Of a stretch of 64,000 nucleotides of DNA, positions 3 through 48,251 are shown in pieces. The stretch comes from Actinomycetes bacterium (GTDB lineage Bacteria; Actinomycetota; Thermoleophilia; BMS3ABIN01). The notes below the pieces were generated by a model that saw nothing but the letters and a program-made list of their open reading frames with translations, ran no database searches and was not told the DNA's origin. Position numbers and translations under genes: made by a program. The first letter of the stretch is position 1, and every line of letters begins with the position of its first letter. The DNA lies in assembly GCA_021787475.1 (NCBI GenBank), contig JAJYLW010000002.1, positions 56,249 to 120,248 on the forward strand, in the 5' to 3' direction.

Positions 3-965
3 ATAGTCAAATACCGAGGTGTCGAGTATCCGGGTCTGCATGAGCCGATCGTGGAACCGGCCCAGTTCGAAAGGGTCCGGCAGATGCTAAGAAGCCGCGA
101 TCAGGCCGGTGAGCGAAAGCGGAAACATCCTCATTACCTGAAAGGCACCGTCTTCTGCGCCGAGTGTGGTTCCAGGCTCTCATTTCTCATTGCTAAGGGT
201 AAGTATCCCTACTTCTACTGCCTGGGACAGAAAAAGCACAACGGCTGCTCTCAGAAATACGTGGATGCAGACTGGGTGGAAAAGAAAATCGAGAATCTGT
301 ACAGAGACATCCAGCTTCCGCTAGAGACAGTCCAGAAACTAAAGAAGATCATGGAAAAGGAAATCGTCAATCAGCAAGCGTCGTCAATTCTTCAAAGGAA
401 ACGGCTTATCAAAAAGATCGAGGAGCTGAATGACAAGAGATACAAACTGGTTGAAGCATATATGGCAGGAGCTATTCTTATCGATATCTTAAAAGGCGAG
501 CAAGAAAGACTGGTCAATGAAATCGGACTAGCCGAGGATCAGCTCAAAGTGATCGACGGAAAACACGAGAACGTTCAGGAGTTACTGGAAATGGCAATCA
601 AGCTTGCCGGCAACTGCCACAAGGCATATTTAAAGGCCGAGGGCGATAACCGGCGGCTGATGAATCAATCATTCTTCAAGAAAATCTTCATCGGTGAAAA
701 GGGCCGGAAAATGAAAGAGCCGGAATACACCGACCTCTTCCGTGATATTTTCTCAGACGATGGTTTGAATAAGTCAAATCTGGTCGGGGTGGGCGGATTT
801 GAACCGCCGACCTCACGGTCCCGAACCGTGCGCTCTACCAAGCTGAGCCACACCCCGAAAAACAGACTGCGTATGGTGGATGGTGGATACTGGATAAACC
901 CAAAAGCAAAGCCCCAAACCAAAACTCGAAAAAGCCAATACTGGATTCTGGCCGACCACGTCTAA
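3..965 (+). CDS. Large serine recombinase, C-terminal portion (N-terminus lies upstream of the window)
   Basis: The frame is open from the window edge. Translation shows a recombinase-domain motif YRGVEYPGLHEPIVEPAQFERVQ, a zinc-ribbon CAECGSRLSF...YFYCLG...HNGC and a long coiled-coil tail. The 3' end is uncertain because the ORF reads antisense through the tRNA-Pro gene before its stop at 963-965. Confidence 0.7.
   Translation: MVKYRGVEYPGLHEPIVEPAQFERVRQMLRSRDQAGERKRKHPHYLKGTVFCAECGSRLSFLIAKGKYPYFYCLGQKKHNGCSQKYVDADWVEKKIENLYRDIQLPLETVQKLKKIMEKEIVNQQASSILQRKRLIKKIEELNDKRYKLVEAYMAGAILIDILKGEQERLVNEIGLAEDQLKVIDGKHENVQELLEMAIKLAGNCHKAYLKAEGDNRRLMNQSFFKKIFIGEKGRKMKEPEYTDLFRDIFSDDGLNKSNLVGVGGFEPPTSRSRTVRSTKLSHTPKNRLRMVDGGYWINPKAKPQTKTRKSQYWILADHV
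781..857 (-). tRNA. tRNA-Pro (anticodon CGG)
   Basis: Reverse complement folds as a canonical cloverleaf. The acceptor stem is CGGGGTG/CACCCCG, the anticodon loop is TTCGGGA, the T-loop is TTCAAAT and the 3' CCA is encoded. Confidence 0.9.
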
Positions 966-3297: not shown

Positions 3298-4371
3298 TTG
3301 GAGCAGTTGTCTGCAATCATTGATTCTTCTGACGACGCAATTTTCGCAAAATCGCTTGACGGAATAATAACAAGCTGGAACCACGGCGCCGAGCTGCTTT
3401 ACGGCTATAAACCGGATGAAATCATCGGCATGCCGGTTTCAATCCTTCTCCCTTCTGACAGAACGAATGAAATTAAAGACATTTTAAAACAGATTGCCGC
3501 CGGCAAGCGCATAGATCATTTCGAGACCAAACGCGTCATCAAAGGCGGCCACATTGTTGATATTTCCCTGACGGTGTCTCCAGTCAAGGATGAAGGCGGC
3601 AAGATCATTGGCGCCTCCTCAATCGCGCGGGATATCAGCGCCCAGAAGCGCTTAGATGAAATACTCAAGCAAACCATGGACGAGCTGAAAGCCTCAAACC
3701 GCGAGCTGGAGCAGTTTGCCTATGTCGCTTCGCACGATCTTCAGGAGCCGCTCCGGCTGGTGGCAAGTTATGTGCAATTGCTTGAGCAGCGGTATCAAAG
3801 CCTGTTTGATGAGCAGGCGCGCAAATACATGGATTATATCGTTAGCGGCGCAAAAAGAATGCAGACGCTGATTAATGATCTGCTCGCATGTTCGCGCGTC
3901 GGCACAATGGGCAAGGAGCTCAAGCCCGTGAGCGCCAGCAAGGCACTGGAGTACGCGCTCGGCAATCTCGAAATGAGCATCAGCCAGAGCGGCGGCAAGG
4001 TGACAAGCAAACAATTGCCGACGGTAATGGGTGACGGCGTTCAGCTGACGCAGTTGTTTCAAAACCTGATCGGCAACGCAATCAAATTTCATAGCGAGAA
4101 ACCGGCTCAGGTCGAAATCGCCGCCGATGATGCAGGCATGAGCTGGCAGTTCTCCATCAAAGACAACGGCATCGGCATCGATATGAAATACGCCGACAGA
4201 ATCTTCACGATCTTTCAGAGGCTGCACGAGAGAAGCAAGTACAAGGGAACAGGCATTGGACTGGCGATAGCGAAAAGAATTGTCGAGAGGCATCATGGCC
4301 AAATCTGGTTCGAGTCAGAGCCAGGCAAAGGCACAACATTCTTTTTTACATTGCCCAAAGTAAAGGAGTGA
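3298..4371 (+). CDS. PAS-domain sensor histidine kinase (HisKA + HATPase_c)
   Basis: An N-terminal PAS domain, an H-box [18 protein letters not shown], and the N, G1 and G2 boxes ([25 protein letters not shown]). TTG start. Confidence 0.85.
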
Positions 4372-6812: not shown

Positions 6813-8876
6813 ATGCCCAAAAGAAGCCAGGCCCAGCTAAAGAAACCCAAAAGCAAAACCAAAAAAGCAACAAAAAACCCTGGCGAAAACAGGCTGTCTC
6901 AGCTGGAGCATCAGGAGTTGCTGGCTTCGATTGTCTCCTCGTCTGAAGACGCCATCATCGGCAAGACCATCAGCGGCACGATCACCACCTGGAACAAGGG
7001 CGCCGAGCTGCTCTACGGATATACGGAAAGGGAAATTGTTGGCAAGCCTATTTCCGTCATCGTTGCTCCTGACAAGGAGGACGAGATGCCTACAGTTCTG
7101 GCCAGGCTGGCGGCGGGAGACAGGGTAGATCATTACGAGACCCAGCGCGTCCGCAAGGATGGATCGCTCATCGACATCTCCCTGACCGTTTCCCCAATCA
7201 AAGACGCCGACGGACAAATTATCGGCGCCGCGACGATTGCCCGCGATATCACATCCCAGAAACAAGCTGCTCATTACGCCCGCTCGCTGATCGAAGCCAG
7301 TCCGGACCCGCTGGTTACCATTAGTCCTGGAGGCAAGATCACCGACGTCAATGAAGCCTCAGTGAATGCGACAGGCGTTCCCCGGGAGAATCTTATCGGC
7401 ACAGACTTCTCCAACTACTTCACCGAGCCGGAAAAAGCGCGCGAAGGCTACCAGCAGGTATTTGCCGAAGGATCAGTGGCTGACTATCCACTGACTATCC
7501 GCCACTGCGACGGAAATCTGATGGAAGTGCTTTACAACGCATCGGTTTACCGCGATACCGAAGGCAATGTCCTGGGCTTATTCGCCGCCGCCCGCGATAT
7601 CACCGCCTAAAAACAAGCGGAAAAAGTAGCCCAACAAAGATCAAAGGAGTTGGTCAGGCTGGCCGAACTGGAGCAGTTCCAGAAACTTACCGTCGGGCGC
7701 GAGCTGAAGATGATCGAGCTAAAACAGCAGATACATGAACTGAAACATCGTCTTGGCGAAGGCCTGAATGAAGAGATAGCAGATGAGTTTAACGATAGCG
7801 CTACTTGGTGATTCTGGTGATTAACGCCTAACGCGAACTGATCGAGCTTCAATGGGACAATTATTAAATCAACCCAACCCCCCCCCTTTTTTTTTCCGGC
7901 AGATGAACAGCGCTGAAATTAATCGCCCCGGTGAGAAATCCCACCCGGGTCTGGAAAGTGAACTGCAGGAAAAGATCGCCTACCTGGAAAAAACCCAGCT
8001 TGCAACCTTGAACATTCTCGAGGACTTAAACGCAGAAAGACAGAAGCTTGAGAATTACCAGCGGGCCACGATCAATATCCTCGAAGATTTCAACCTGGAG
8101 AAGGAGCGGGCAGAAATCGCGAACGTTGAGATTCGCGCCCGGACCGAGCAGTTAAAGCTGACAAACGCAGAATTAGAGCAATTTGCATACGTCGCTTCGC
8201 ATGACTTGCAAGAGCCGCTGAGAATGGTGGCCAGCTATGTTCAACTGCTCGAAAGAAAGTACAAGGACCAACTTGACGATGATGCCCGCGATTTCATTCA
8301 TTTCGCATCAGACGGCGCCAACCGCATGCGCGTCACGGTCAAGGATCTTCTCAAGTATTCGCGGGTCGGCACCACAGAAGAGCACCTTGAAAAATCAGCA
8401 CAGAGACGGCTTTAAAACAGGCGCTTGTCAATCTCAAGTTATCCATTATGGAACAGAACGCAACCGTCACCAATGACAGGCTGCCTGACATCATCGCCGA
8501 TTTTCCTCAGATATCCCAACTTTTCCAAAACCTGGTGGGCAACGCCATCAAGTTCCGCCGCCAGCAAATAGAACCACATATACATATCTCAGCAACCAGA
8601 CAAAAAAGGAATGGCTGTTTTCTGTAAAAGACAATGGCATAGGCATTGAAGAATCGTATTTCGAGCGGATCTTTATCATCTTTCAACGGATGCATGCATA
8701 TGAGGAATTTGGCGGAACAGGCATCGGCCTGGCAATCTGCAAGAGAATTGTCGATCGACACGGTGGCAAGATCTGGCTGGAATCGGAGCCGGGGGAAGGC
8801 AGCATTTTTTATTTCACAATTCCTCTCCAGCCGGCCGAAAAATTAATTCTGGCAAATGATAAATGATTTAACAATA
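6813..8876 (+). pseudogene. Disrupted PAS-PAS-coiled-coil-histidine kinase (paralog of 3298..4371)
   Basis: Two PAS domains read cleanly to an in-frame TAA (7608-7610) inside the conserved DIT-x-KQAE motif. The open frame continues through a coiled-coil to 7811. After a C9T9 tract, the H-box [16 protein letters not shown] and the HATPase motifs lie in three different frames. 1-nt deletions at about 8406 and at the A6 run 8593-8598 would restore them. Confidence 0.55.
7878..7895 (+). repeat. Homopolymer tract C9T9
   Basis: AACCCAA-CCCCCCCCC-TTTTTTTTT-CCGG read directly. It sits at the 5' end of the kinase-domain reading frame. Confidence 0.9.
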
Positions 8877-17834: not shown

Positions 17835-18953
17835 TCAAGCGACGGCAAAATATCGCTTCAGGCCCGCCAGAATTGCTTGCGCCTCACGATCAGCCAGCCT
17901 CCCGTCCGATAAATCAATGTCTCGTCCTGAACTTAGAAAAAGCGGCTCAACCAGAACGGCAGTCATCTCCGTTTCCCTAAGAACGGCGAAGTTTCGGCCG
18001 ATCGGCGGGAGCGCCGGCAGGCCCAGTTCACGGGACAGGCTGTTCAGGATATGCCAGGCAAGAAGTTTTCCCGACTCGGAAAAATATCCCTGCCGGCAAA
18101 AAAAATAAGCCGCCGAGCCCTGGGCGGCGGGACTCGAGCAACTGTTATGATGGATGCTGATAAAAAGATCGCCGCCCCATGCGTTCGCCAGGGCTGGACG
18201 ATCGTAAAGGTCAACGTCCGTATCGCTTTCCCTCGTGAAATAAATGCGCGATCCCTCCTGTTCAAGGGCCCGCCCTAACATAATTGACACCTGCAGGTTG
18301 AGTTCTTTTTCGGGCACCGGGCCGTCTCCGGAAACTCCGGGATCATCCCCGCCATGGCCGGGATCGATGACAATTGCTATGTTTGCCAGTGATCGACCGG
18401 CGGCACTGCCACCGTTTCGGTCCGGAATCTTGGCATCGTCTGCGTGCGGACCGGCATCTTTGGTTACCCTGGCCATCGATTTGAGCACCGATTCGTCAAC
18501 CATTCCGTCAACAACCAGCCCGGCGTTTTTCTGAAAGTCAAGCACCGCCCTTTCCGTAACGTATCCAAAAATTCCATCTTCGGGACCAGCGTTGAATCCC
18601 AGCCGGTTCAAGGATCGCTGCAGAATAAGAACATCAGCACCGCGAAAAGAAGGAATTTTCAAATAAAGCAGTCTTTCGCCGGTCCCGTAGCCGGCCTCGA
18701 CCAGTTCCTGCCAGGTGTTGTCTGCGACAATCCCGTCGGCGAGCAGGCCATTGGCCTGTTGAAAAGCAAGAACCGCCGCCTGCGTGTCAGGGCCAAAAAA
18801 ACCGTCGACGCCGTCTGTGCCGACATTGTATCCCAACCCGCACATCCGCGATTGAACGTCAAGCACCTCTTTCCCCCGATCGCCCAATTTCAAAGTTCTC
18901 ATTAAAAACCGCCCTTCAACCGGCAGCGATTGCGACTGCCAGAAATTTATCAA
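17835..18953 (-). CDS. N-acetylmuramoyl-L-alanine amidase (Amidase_3) with two peptidoglycan-binding domains
   Basis: Two PG_binding_1-like repeats (LGYNVGTDGVDGFFGPDTQAAVLAFQ) and an Amidase_3 core (IAIVIDPGHGGDDPG ... SIHHNS). Confidence 0.8.
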   Translation of the reverse strand: MINFWQSQSLPVEGRFLMRTLKLGDRGKEVLDVQSRMCGLGYNVGTDGVDGFFGPDTQAAVLAFQQANGLLADGIVADNTWQELVEAGYGTGERLLYLKIPSFRGADVLILQRSLNRLGFNAGPEDGIFGYVTERAVLDFQKNAGLVVDGMVDESVLKSMARVTKDAGPHADDAKIPDRNGGSAAGRSLANIAIVIDPGHGGDDPGVSGDGPVPEKELNLQVSIMLGRALEQEGSRIYFTRESDTDVDLYDRPALANAWGGDLFISIHHNSCSSPAAQGSAAYFFCRQGYFSESGKLLAWHILNSLSRELGLPALPPIGRNFAVLRETEMTAVLVEPLFLSSGRDIDLSDGRLADREAQAILAGLKRYFAVA

Positions 18954-18985
18954 TGACGATCATCCAATTCACTTGAGGGAAACTC

Positions 18986-19029
18986 GGGGACACGATCCCA
19001 ATTTCCTTCGGAAATTGAGTCATGTCCCC
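18986..19029. repeat. Intergenic hairpin repeat, type A, copy 1
   Basis: GGGGACACGATCCCAATTTCC-TTCG-GAAATTGAGTCATGTCCCC, with nested inverted repeats. It is nearly identical to 47289..47329. Confidence 0.6.
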
Positions 19030-19043
19030 TGCCTAGATCGTGT

Positions 19044-19097
19044 CAAGCCCCTCGCATCATTATTTTTTTGATTGTCCTGAGTGAAGAGGATGATCAG
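19044..19097. repeat. Intergenic repeat, type B, copy 1
   Basis: CAAGCCCCTCGCATCATT + T7 + GATTGTC-CTGA-GTGAAGAGGATGA-TCAG. The same element occurs at 45642 and 48152. Confidence 0.6.
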
Positions 19098-19103
19098 TTA
19101 AGG

Positions 19104-19925
19104 TTAATGCTTGCTCCTCTCAGGTTCAAGCGAACCACCGGGCCAAGGTATCATGTTTCCGCTGCCGGGCCGCACCGCCCCGGCTAGCGCCTTTTCGACG
19201 AGCTTCTTGGCGCAGCCAACAGCATCCACAGGCTTCCTTCCCTCTGCCAGCAAGCATGTCAGCGCCGCCGAAAAAAAGCAGCCGGAGCCATGAAATTCCC
19301 TGCCGCCACCCTGCCGGGCGCCAGGAAAGATTTCCGGCCCGCTATCTCCAAGGAAGACATCAACGGGCGGTCCCCGGAAATGACCACCGGTGATGCACAC
19401 GGCTCTGGCTCCCCAACTTGCCAGCCGCCGCGCCGCTTCGACGGCTTCGGTTTCTGTCCTGATCCGCAACCCGGTCAACGTTTCCGCCTCATCCAGGTTC
19501 GGCGTAATCACTTCGGCAAGCGGAAGCAAATGCTTCTGTATCGCGCGGGCAACTTTGCGGCCGCCCAGATCAAACCCGCCCGTGCTTTTTAAGACCGGAT
19601 CAACGACCAGCCACCCTGCCTTCCTGTTTGAAACCGCTTCCGCAACCGCCTCCACTGTTTCGGCAGCCGCCAGCATGCCTGTCTTTACTGCCGCAGGGGT
19701 AACATCATCGAGCAAAACGTCAAGCTGGTCGCGCACCGGCGCTGCGCCCAGCGGATGGATTGCTTTTACTTCAAGTGTGTTTTGTGATGTGATGGCTGTT
19801 ATCACACCCAGGCCATAAAATCCCAGCCAGTTAAACACGCGCAAGTCGGCCACTACTCCGGCTCCACCCGAGGGATCGAATCCGGCGACCGAAAGAACCG
19901 CAGGCATGCCGGACAACTCAGCCAT
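19104..19925 (-). CDS. thiD: Hydroxymethylpyrimidine/phosphomethylpyrimidine kinase
   Basis: PfkB-family motifs LSVAGFDPSGGAGV...AITSQNT. The start was set at the ATG with an 8-nt overlap onto thiL, since the longer ORF (ending 20093) is an unlikely N-terminal extension. Confidence 0.8.
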   Translation of the reverse strand: MAELSGMPAVLSVAGFDPSGGAGVVADLRVFNWLGFYGLGVITAITSQNTLEVKAIHPLGAAPVRDQLDVLLDDVTPAAVKTGMLAAAETVEAVAEAVSNRKAGWLVVDPVLKSTGGFDLGGRKVARAIQKHLLPLAEVITPNLDEAETLTGLRIRTETEAVEAARRLASWGARAVCITGGHFRGPPVDVFLGDSGPEIFPGARQGGGREFHGSGCFFSAALTCLLAEGRKPVDAVGCAKKLVEKALAGAVRPGSGNMIPWPGGSLEPERSKH

Positions 19926-24599: not shown

Positions 24600-24722
<123 letters not shown>

Positions 24723-24737
24723 GTATGTTTCAGTCGG

Positions 24738-45319: not shown

Positions 45320-45641
45320 TAAGGGCGTAATGTTGCCCGTATCTTAACACGTTAAAACATCCTCTGGCACTCCGCCATCTTTTCCTGATGCGGCAGCCGT
45401 TGAGGCCGGTTTTGATGCAGAGGAAAATATACAGCAGTCACGCTGGCGACGCTATCGGGAAAGCCTCTGATTTGCGCTGCGGCAAAACCCCGACAAACAT
45501 GATTTGATTTCTGTCCGGTGGCTTATTCCCTTGCTGATCATCAAATTTCTCCGGAATGATCTCAGGGCTTGCCTCAATCTGCACCTACGGCCGGCCGGCT
45601 CCGCGTCGGCGTCCCTGTGGCCAGTTCCCGGCAAGCCCCTC

Positions 45642-45686
45642 GCACCATTATTCTTTTCTGATTATCCGAGTGAAAATGGTGATCGG
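45642..45686. repeat. Intergenic repeat, type B, copy 2
   Basis: CAAGCCCCTCGCACCATT...CCGA-GTGAAAATGGTGA-TCGG. The stem carries a compensatory change (CCGA/TCGG) relative to copies 1 and 3 (CTGA/TCAG). Confidence 0.55.
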
Positions 45687-47188: not shown

Positions 47189-47288
47189 CGATACATTTTA
47201 CTGATCATACAATTTATTCAGGAAACTGCTCGGGGTTTGCCTAGTTCTGCCTAAGTCCGGCCGGCGATCATCCATTGAAGAAACTCAT

Positions 47289-47329
47289 AGGACACGATCC
47301 CAATTTCCTTCGGGAATCGGGTCATGTCC
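47289..47329. repeat. Intergenic hairpin repeat, type A, copy 2
   Basis: GGACACGATCCCAATTTCC-TTCG-GGAATCGGGTCATGTCCC. It lies between the mnmA start and the upstream thioredoxin-like gene. Confidence 0.6.
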
Positions 47330-47348
47330 CATGAGTGCTTTGGCGGTC

Positions 47349-47888: not shown

Positions 47889-48151
47889 CTAAGCCACGCC
47901 TCCAAAATAAAGCTCCACCCTGCCGTGTCCGCCCATTTATTGAACCTGCTCCAGCAGGTGGGTGCCCGCTCCCCAGCTACCCTCAGATAGCGGGAGAAGA
48001 CAAAGCTCCCGTACACAATATGTTGGCTCAATAAAGTTGCAGATCACGCACAAGGTCGAGCAAGACAATACTATCACACGCCCTTATTCTTCGGCAACAG
48101 GAAAACAAAACCTTCAAAAACAATGCCGGCCTTCCTGCGCCCGGATCCCGG

Positions 48152-48213
48152 CAAGCCCCTCGCATCATTTTTTTTTTTTTTTTTTTATTATTCTGAGTGA
48201 AGAGGATGTTCAG
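48152..48213. repeat. Intergenic repeat, type B, copy 3, containing a T19 homopolymer
   Basis: CAAGCCCCTCGCATCA + T19 (48168-48186) + ATTATT-CTGA-GTGAAGAGGATGT-TCAG. Confidence 0.6.
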
Positions 48214-48251
48214 TTCAGTTTATTCGACGTTCGCAATTCGCAATTCGACAT

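Follow-up and report, generated by a model that had tools for sequence, protein, structure and literature searches.

A lineage-restricted family of intergenic imperfect palindromes, best read as MITE/ERIC-like mobile elements with a nested REP-like hairpin module

Short hairpin-forming sequences recur in spacers between co-directional minus-strand genes of the window, by which we mean the whole stretch of 64,000 nucleotides that was analysed, and their recurrence raises the question of whether they are regulatory RNA structures or copies of an element that moves. The original prediction described two hairpin types, A and B, in the thiD>amidase, mnmA>DUF948, trx-like>mnmA and aspS>trx-like spacers, and these motifs are present in the sequence as described, far above chance in shuffle tests. 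The type A consensus matched twice (18988-19027 and 47290-47329), with none expected in 100 shuffles; the 5′ part of type B (CAAGCCCCTCGCAYCATT) gave three exact matches (19044, 45632 and 48152), with 0.32 expected at up to three mismatches, and its 3′ part gave three (19077, 45666 and 48193), with 0.05 expected. The type B positions 19044 and 48152 were thus correctly predicted, while the second copy begins at 45632 and not at 45642. The family is truly intergenic, with all of its flanking genes on the minus strand, and the names given to these genes hold in Pfam searches: ThiD, Amidase_3 with PG_binding_1, and MnmA are clear, and the DUF948 and thioredoxin-like neighbours are weak matches below the Pfam cut-offs. 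Four spacers are occupied, three of them within 3 kb, and the elements are 44-53% GC as against 51-60% for the window. Another repeat in the window consists of paralogous histidine-kinase segments (3695-4355 versus 8162-8823; repeat families D1, D4 and D8), which are 71-75% identical and look like a duplicated two-component cassette.

Types A and B do not represent two independent hairpin families. They are building blocks of a single composite family of inverted-repeat elements, because the 5′ end of type B recurs in inverted form as a right arm or tail (Table 1). Type B is the left arm of a larger palindrome, and type A is its central hairpin module. On the gene-sense (minus) strand, a complete copy reads as a non-coding imperfect palindrome of 135-153 bp, whose termini of ~22 nt are inverted repeats of the form 5′-CYGATCATCC-NN-TTCACTCAGG on the left and CCTGAGTGAA-NN-GGATGATCRG-3′ on the right (in short form, CTGATCATCC...GGATGATCAG). 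From its terminus each arm runs on into a conserved G(A/C)GGGGCTTGCC segment. The left arm, type B, comprises CTGATCATCCTCTTCACTCAGG, an A-rich block and AATGATGCGAGGGGCTTGCC, and then continues into GGGATCYGGSCRCAGGRAGGCCGG; the A-rich block varies in length from 7 to 19 A and is confined to this arm. The right arm is an inverted copy of the left arm without the A-rich block, so that the two compare as CTGATCATCAAATTTCTCCGG-A-ATGATCTCAGGGCTTGCC versus CCGATCACCATTTTCACTCGG-[17 nt A-rich]-ATGGTGCGAGGGGCTTGCC. Aligned as inverted repeats, the arms of E4 show a 17-nt A-rich block that is unique to the left one. Type A is a 44-nt GC-rich hairpin with a conserved bulge, 5′-GGGGACAUGACCC..GGGAUCGUGUCCCC-3′, and forms the centre of the palindrome in E1. 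Downstream of both window copies of type A lies a common tail, GAGTTTCYYTCAA(GTGAAT)TGGATGATCG, that repeats the 5′ end of type B in inverted form. The right-arm modules listed for E1, E3 and E4 had been overlooked. By pairwise BLAST and a fuzzy search, the second right arm of E3 matches that of E4, and both match the right arm carried by an element of a related genome (L014). Both E1 and E3 are nested or composite, and E2, which scores 88 bits against the type B profile (nhmmer), has no recognisable right arm. All copies share a single orientation, and none contains an open reading frame of at least 60 amino acids wholly inside it or carries a transposase gene.

Table 1. Repeat elements of the window, their modules, and the neighbouring 6S RNA gene
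Feature	Position	Strand	Context
E1, complete composite, 141 bp	18957..19097	-	thiD>amidase spacer
E1, left end	19076-19097		
E1, A-rich block and conserved AATGATGCGAGGGGCTTG	19030-19075		
E1, type B copy	19044-19097		
E1, type A hairpin (type A copy)	18986-19029		
E1, right end GAGTTTCCCTCAAGTGAATTGGATGATCG	18957-18985		right-arm module
E4, complete, 153 bp	45534..45686	-	mnmA>DUF948 spacer
E4, left arm (type B)	45607-45686		
E4, type B copy	45632-45686		
E4, GC-rich centre			between the arms
E4, right arm GCCGGCCGG...GGCAAGCCCTGAGATCATTCCGGAGAAATTTGATGATCAG	45534-45599		right-arm module
E3, composite or partial, without left arm	47201..47336	-	trx-like>mnmA spacer; fuzzy search and pairwise BLAST
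E3, type A hairpin, extended stem	47283-47336		
E3, type A copy	47288-47331		
E3, short right end GAGTTTCTTCAATGGATGATCG	47265-47286		right-arm module
E3, second right arm	47201-47265		right-arm module, homologous to that of E4
E2, left arm only (type B copy 3)	48125..48213	-	between aspS stop codon and 6S RNA promoter
E2, type B copy	48152-48213		
E2, homopolymer A19	48168-48186		
6S RNA gene	47908..48064	-	Rfam RF00013, 75 bits, E 5.7e-13; not part of the element

The strong structure claimed for these sequences was confirmed, with z-scores of -5.2 to -5.8. Folded end to end, E1 closes into a single structure by pairing of its two ends (-61.3 kcal/mol, z -5.19); the corresponding z-scores are -2.09 for E4 and -3.65 for F1, a complete element of the related genome (L014:4987-5121), and E3 folds with z -4.26. 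The left and right termini pair in the minimum-energy folds of E1, E4 and F1, where their identity as inverted repeats, counted by eye, is 17/22, 14/21 and 14/22, respectively. The case for selection on the individual hairpins fared differently. The compensatory change from CTGA/TCAG to CCGA/TCGG is real (two copies and one copy, respectively), but it cannot serve as proof of selection, because the copies of L014 carry CTGA/TCAA and CCGA/TCAG, each with a broken pair, so that the mini-stem of type B is broken in two of the five copies; its bases find a better partner in the opposite terminus. Type A shows no significant covariation, with 91.8% of cells paired versus 91.4% in shuffles and one double-sided change. 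The pairing proposed between CCTGAG..AGAGGA and the thiD codons TCCTCTCAGG (19115-19124) exists in the first copy and has no equivalent in the others; the thiD stretch is coding, and a relative without the element (L020) has a similar sequence there (CCTGGGAAGA versus CCTGAGAGGA). A mini-ORF in type B (ATGATGCGAGGGGCTTGA) was rejected, its frame and stop not being kept in the other copies (by eye). The type B loop resembles the 3′ end of 16S rRNA (GAUCAUCCUCUU), and this loop varies (CACCAUUUUC in E4). As predicted, Rfam searches at permissive thresholds (E up to 10) returned no match to a known RNA family, the best scores (12-17 bits, E 3.7-7.5) falling far below the gathering threshold.

Comparison with other genomes bears directly on whether the elements are fixed parts of their spacers. 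A public contig from an uncultured bacterium, DAHWTX010000002.1 (GCA_027331575.1), is 99.985% identical to the window. The sole difference between the two over 20.5 kb lies in the homopolymer of E2 (A19-20; one mismatch and one gap) and could represent slippage heterogeneity or assembly noise. The best named protein homologues are only 51-53% identical and come from MAGs labelled Thermoleophilia. Two relatives, GCA_014874175.1 (L014, L020) and GCA_027334495.1 (L015, L022), keep the same gene order round both regions; at 73-84% identity in genes they are too diverged to define a base-exact empty site. The thiD>amidase spacer measures 200 nt in the window, 86 nt in L020 and 57 nt in L022, and across the three genomes the left flank (GCATTAACCTT) and the right flank align, leaving E1 as an inserted block. 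A conserved hairpin, CTGGCAGTCGCAATCGCTGCCGG (18920-18942, minus strand), precedes the amidase start within the right flank. It lies just ahead of the amidase ribosome-binding site, is found at the same place, with another stem sequence, in the relatives, and may act as the native terminator of thiD or as a leader of the amidase gene. The thiamine operon that ends at the E1 insertion (thi4, thiE, thiC, thiD) has a TPP riboswitch upstream (24612-24730, minus strand, 67.5 bits).

At the second region, E2 is absent after aspS in both L014 and L015, which keep the 6S promoter and gene. A CGAATTG-like heptamer mini-tandem (CGAATTGCGAATTGCGAACGTCGAAT) directly after the aspS stop codon (48222-48247) is likewise absent from the relatives. 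The trx>mnmA spacer holds E3 in the window, a left-arm element (F2) in L014 and no element in L015, and F1 follows a metalloenzyme gene in L014 at a site that is empty in the window genome and in L015. The L014 genome thus has two occupied sites that differ from the occupied spacers of the window in content or place. The 33 kb of the L015 genome contain no left arm and no type A hairpin, and only a degenerate right-arm-like remnant at the site orthologous to E4. Because the elements are not conserved at orthologous sites, these comparisons speak for insertion and turnover rather than for a fixed cis-regulatory role. Where the upstream stop codon can be identified (E1, E2, E4 and F1), the left end lies 4-47 nt past it, and TTAA immediately precedes three of the five left ends. 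Both flanks often carry TAA or TTAA, and no target-site duplication could be defined from the left flanks (TTAA, TGAA, ATAC) and right flanks (TCAT, TAAA, CAAG, TAAT).

The same evidence weighs on a reading in which the hairpins are selected cis-acting RNA structures of the UTRs (terminators, RNase processing sites or stabilisers) that recur because of their function and not because of mobility. Such a role would fit the strong folds, the invariable sense orientation shortly after stop codons, the fact that the non-Watson-Crick positions of the type A stem body are G.U on the sense strand, and the end of E2, where a UGCCGG...CCGGCA stem is followed by UUGUUUUUG. We nevertheless regard it as improbable. 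Relatives that have retained the genes and the 6S promoter do not conserve the structures at the orthologous spacers, and the near-identical sequences in non-homologous spacers must have come from copying. In addition, the lack of significant covariation and the broken type B mini-stems count against it, as does the tail of type A: neither copy is followed by the U run of a canonical intrinsic terminator (GAGUUUCCCU and AUGAGUUUCUUC), and the terminator scan lists neither.

A second regulatory reading concerns the left arm, which might act, as in Correia elements, as a promoter (TTCACT, a spacer of 15-18 nt, AATAAT) driving the downstream gene. The scan does pick TTCACT-16-AATAAT in E4, and the same hexamers stand 15 nt apart in E1 and 18 nt apart in F2. 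This spacing is not conserved, however, and is destroyed by the A19 tract in E2; the sigma-70 scan listed 5 promoter-like sites where 2.5 were expected, a non-significant excess, and neither it nor the terminator scan gave anything significant at the elements. The aspS>trx-like spacer, which had been treated as otherwise empty, holds the 6S RNA gene immediately upstream of the thioredoxin-like gene, and the third type B copy therefore lies between aspS and the 6S promoter. That gene has its own promoter-like sequence downstream of E2, TTGCCG-N18-TAGTAT (48068-48097), conserved in L014 and L015, which lack E2, and type B was rejected as the 6S RNA promoter. Promoter activity of the left arm is accordingly highly improbable as an explanation of the family.

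We therefore favor, as the probable though by no means assured explanation, that these sequences derive, as copies and fragments, from a small non-autonomous mobile element without coding capacity, similar to MITEs and ERIC elements. Prokaryotic MITEs are shorter than 500 bp, have terminal inverted repeats, target AT-rich intergenic sites and give transcripts with stable folds (PMC10969869), and Delihas draws a similar picture of such elements (PMC3184786). The complete copies here are likewise short (135-153 bp, below 500 bp) and lack a transposase gene, their terminal inverted repeats of ~22 nt fall within the typical 4-30 bp, and dispersed copies differ in presence and absence among related genomes. 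Of the defining MITE features, no consistent target-site duplication and no parent IS were found; the direct repeats that flank MITEs fade with age (PMC10969869). Neither the window nor the fetched loci contain a related autonomous IS with the same ends, a weak negative given that ~77 kb of the source genome were read; these 77 kb contain no transposase partner with the element ends, and the window contains no transposase. The IS110 transposase beside the window, the IS200-like element of a relative and the IS4-like transposase of the metagenome locus L011 were rejected as partners, since they share no ends with the family. The IS110-family gene belongs to a group at the left window edge, by tRNA-Pro, that also includes an RHH/PIN toxin-antitoxin pair, an HTH protein and a two-part serine recombinase (L018 1-5626; window 51-965 and 781-857) and is probably an integrated mobile element in its own right.

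Searches for additional members were similarly bounded. The 77 kb of the source genome that were read, including 12.7 kb flanking the window, yielded no further copies, and neither did L020 or L022; related copies do occur in a relative and in metagenomes. A covariance model of type A detected no extra copies in the window or the relatives. Scans of plasmids by BLAST and of viral contigs with three patterns gave nothing, or chance matches in coding sequence. The type B pattern GCCCCTCGCAYCATT-N(4-34)-GAGTGAA (plus strand) gave one match in a genome collection, a chance match in an Acidobacteria MAG, and no real copy; the source genome is evidently not among the species representatives of that collection.

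Among known systems, the Correia elements (CREE) of Neisseria and the pneumococcal RUP resemble the present family in being non-coding, intergenic and ~100-160 bp long with terminal inverted repeats, and in being co-transcribed, forming long hairpins, clustering and nesting, and differing in presence between related genomes (PMC10969869, PMC3184786). Bunching and nesting have been described for pneumococcal BOX, RUP and SPRITE, and the occupied spacers within 3 kb, together with the nested E1 and E3, constitute bunching of the same kind (PMC10969869). Unlike CREE and RUP, the family described here shows no sequence similarity to them, no TA or other target-site duplication and no parent IS; it also has one orientation relative to genes and an A-rich block in one arm only. 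The 127-bp enterobacterial ERIC (IRU) elements are alike in size, in their imperfect palindrome, in internal insertions that give size variants, in occupying transcribed intergenic sites near stop codons and in having no recognised transposase, and differ in lineage and sequence. The effect of ERIC elements on mRNA depends on their orientation. What is new is this particular family, which has not been described before, and not its kind, since MITE- and REP-like repeats already have been.

If the elements are MITE/ERIC-like, a transposase encoded elsewhere in the genome would bind their termini in trans. Once inserted behind a gene, an element would be co-transcribed with it, and the transcript would fold into a long 3′ UTR hairpin that may block exonucleases or help termination. 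The one orientation of all copies is unexpected for a simple cut-and-paste DDE MITE and suggests selection on RNA or strand-specific insertion. GC skew is negative on the plus strand throughout the window, making the minus strand the probable leading strand, and since this holds across the whole window, the orientation bias cannot separate an effect of transcription from one of replication (single-stranded DNA).

Strand-specific insertion is what would be expected of a REP/BIME- or PATE-like element, in which a single-stranded hairpin is recognised by a Y1 transposase (RAYT or IS200/IS605-type) and inserts 3′ of TTAA without duplication. The undefined target-site duplication, the TTAA that precedes three of five left ends and the single orientation on the probable leading strand agree with this possibility. 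So do several properties of type A, namely its 44-nt GC-rich imperfect palindrome with a conserved bulge, its strand-specific G.T/G.U positions, its location after genes and its arms in alternating clusters (L008), which are similar to BIMEs. REP/BIME repeats occur in tens to hundreds of copies per genome and have a conserved 5′ GTAG/GTGG tetranucleotide. Here, only two type A copies are present in 77 kb, none of nine type A copies has a 5′ GTAG/GTGG (the bases before the stem being CTC, CAT, TCT, ATA, TTC and similar), and tblastn found no RAYT or other Y1 transposase in the 77 kb read (window and L016/L018). Although a Y1 transposase is present in a relative, its gene is flanked by unrelated hairpins: this IS200-like protein of 146 aa (L022 13330-13850) has hairpins of its own, TCCCCATCGGGGA and CCACCGGCTTAGAGCCGGTGG, which are unrelated to types A and B. 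Moreover, IS200/IS605 derivatives normally lack terminal inverted repeats, which the complete elements truly have. For the family as a whole we consider this mechanism unlikely.

The type A module also has a distribution of its own. A metagenome scan with the type A 19-mer GGACACGATCCCAATTTCC, which in itself fixes one arm, listed 10 loci, of which seven contain true type A hairpins (L002, L003, L004, L008, L009, L010 and L011); L005, L006 and L007 were rejected as chance matches without a second arm. The loops of these hairpins are 3-4 nt in most cases and 48 nt in L003, their flanks differ from that of the window copies (GGTAATNTGGGG...), and L008 has a cluster of four type A arms in alternating orientation. 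Their neighbours are unrelated (a Cys/Met PLP enzyme followed by an ECF sigma factor, an MNT/HepT pair, an amidohydrolase). The occurrence of type A alone in unrelated metagenome contigs indicates that it is an independent module, which sits by chance inside the larger element in E1. A different MITE of ~135 bp, with ends GAGAGCTTTGCACAACC... and core GTCATTCCGC/GG...GGAATCCAG, occurs in at least four copies beside a type A hairpin that lies between MNT and HepT genes, with an IS4-like DDE transposase adjacent (L011 3400-3545; L009 1-116, 285-364, 702-836 and 1101-1182). Hairpins at L003 6343-6410 and L010 4550-4616 have common feet, GGGGACAC...GTGTCCCC (or GGTGACAC...GTGTCACC), and different interiors, which suggests a broader hairpin-repeat superfamily in those environmental genomes.

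In asymmetric type A copies one arm reads CATGAC-CC and the other GGGATCGTG, and in each of them the same strand folds better, by 5-11 kcal/mol, because the non-Watson-Crick positions of the stem body are G.U on that strand and C/A mismatches on the other. In all four callable cases (the two window copies, L011 and L010), the upstream gene has the better-folding strand as its sense strand. This pattern hints that a sense-strand RNA (or single-stranded DNA) hairpin is what is kept in type A; as evidence the bias is suggestive but thin, since it amounts to ~5 independent transition events with one arm fixed by the search. Mobile repeats whose transcripts resemble 3′-end hairpins, often bunched with other repeats, have been described (PMC10969869), and type A is like them except that it is without the U run of a canonical terminator. 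A more speculative proposal, to which we give little credence at present, is that type A is a widely dispersed, strand-specific and portable 3′-end module without a U-tract, which ends or protects transcripts, has spread alone or inside MITEs among unrelated uncultured bacteria, and is kept for a sense-strand RNA fold that is useful to the host. If transcript 3′ ends map to type A, it would represent a mobile terminator or stabiliser in lineages without canonical U-tract terminators.

The family is best read as real, structured and lineage-restricted, a set of MITE/ERIC-like mobile imperfect palindromes with a nested REP-like hairpin module. For annotation, this means that the elements account for several unusually long spacers in a poorly sampled bacterial lineage, and that the apparent "UTR structures" found there are insertions and not conserved regulators, which mark sites of recent genome change.
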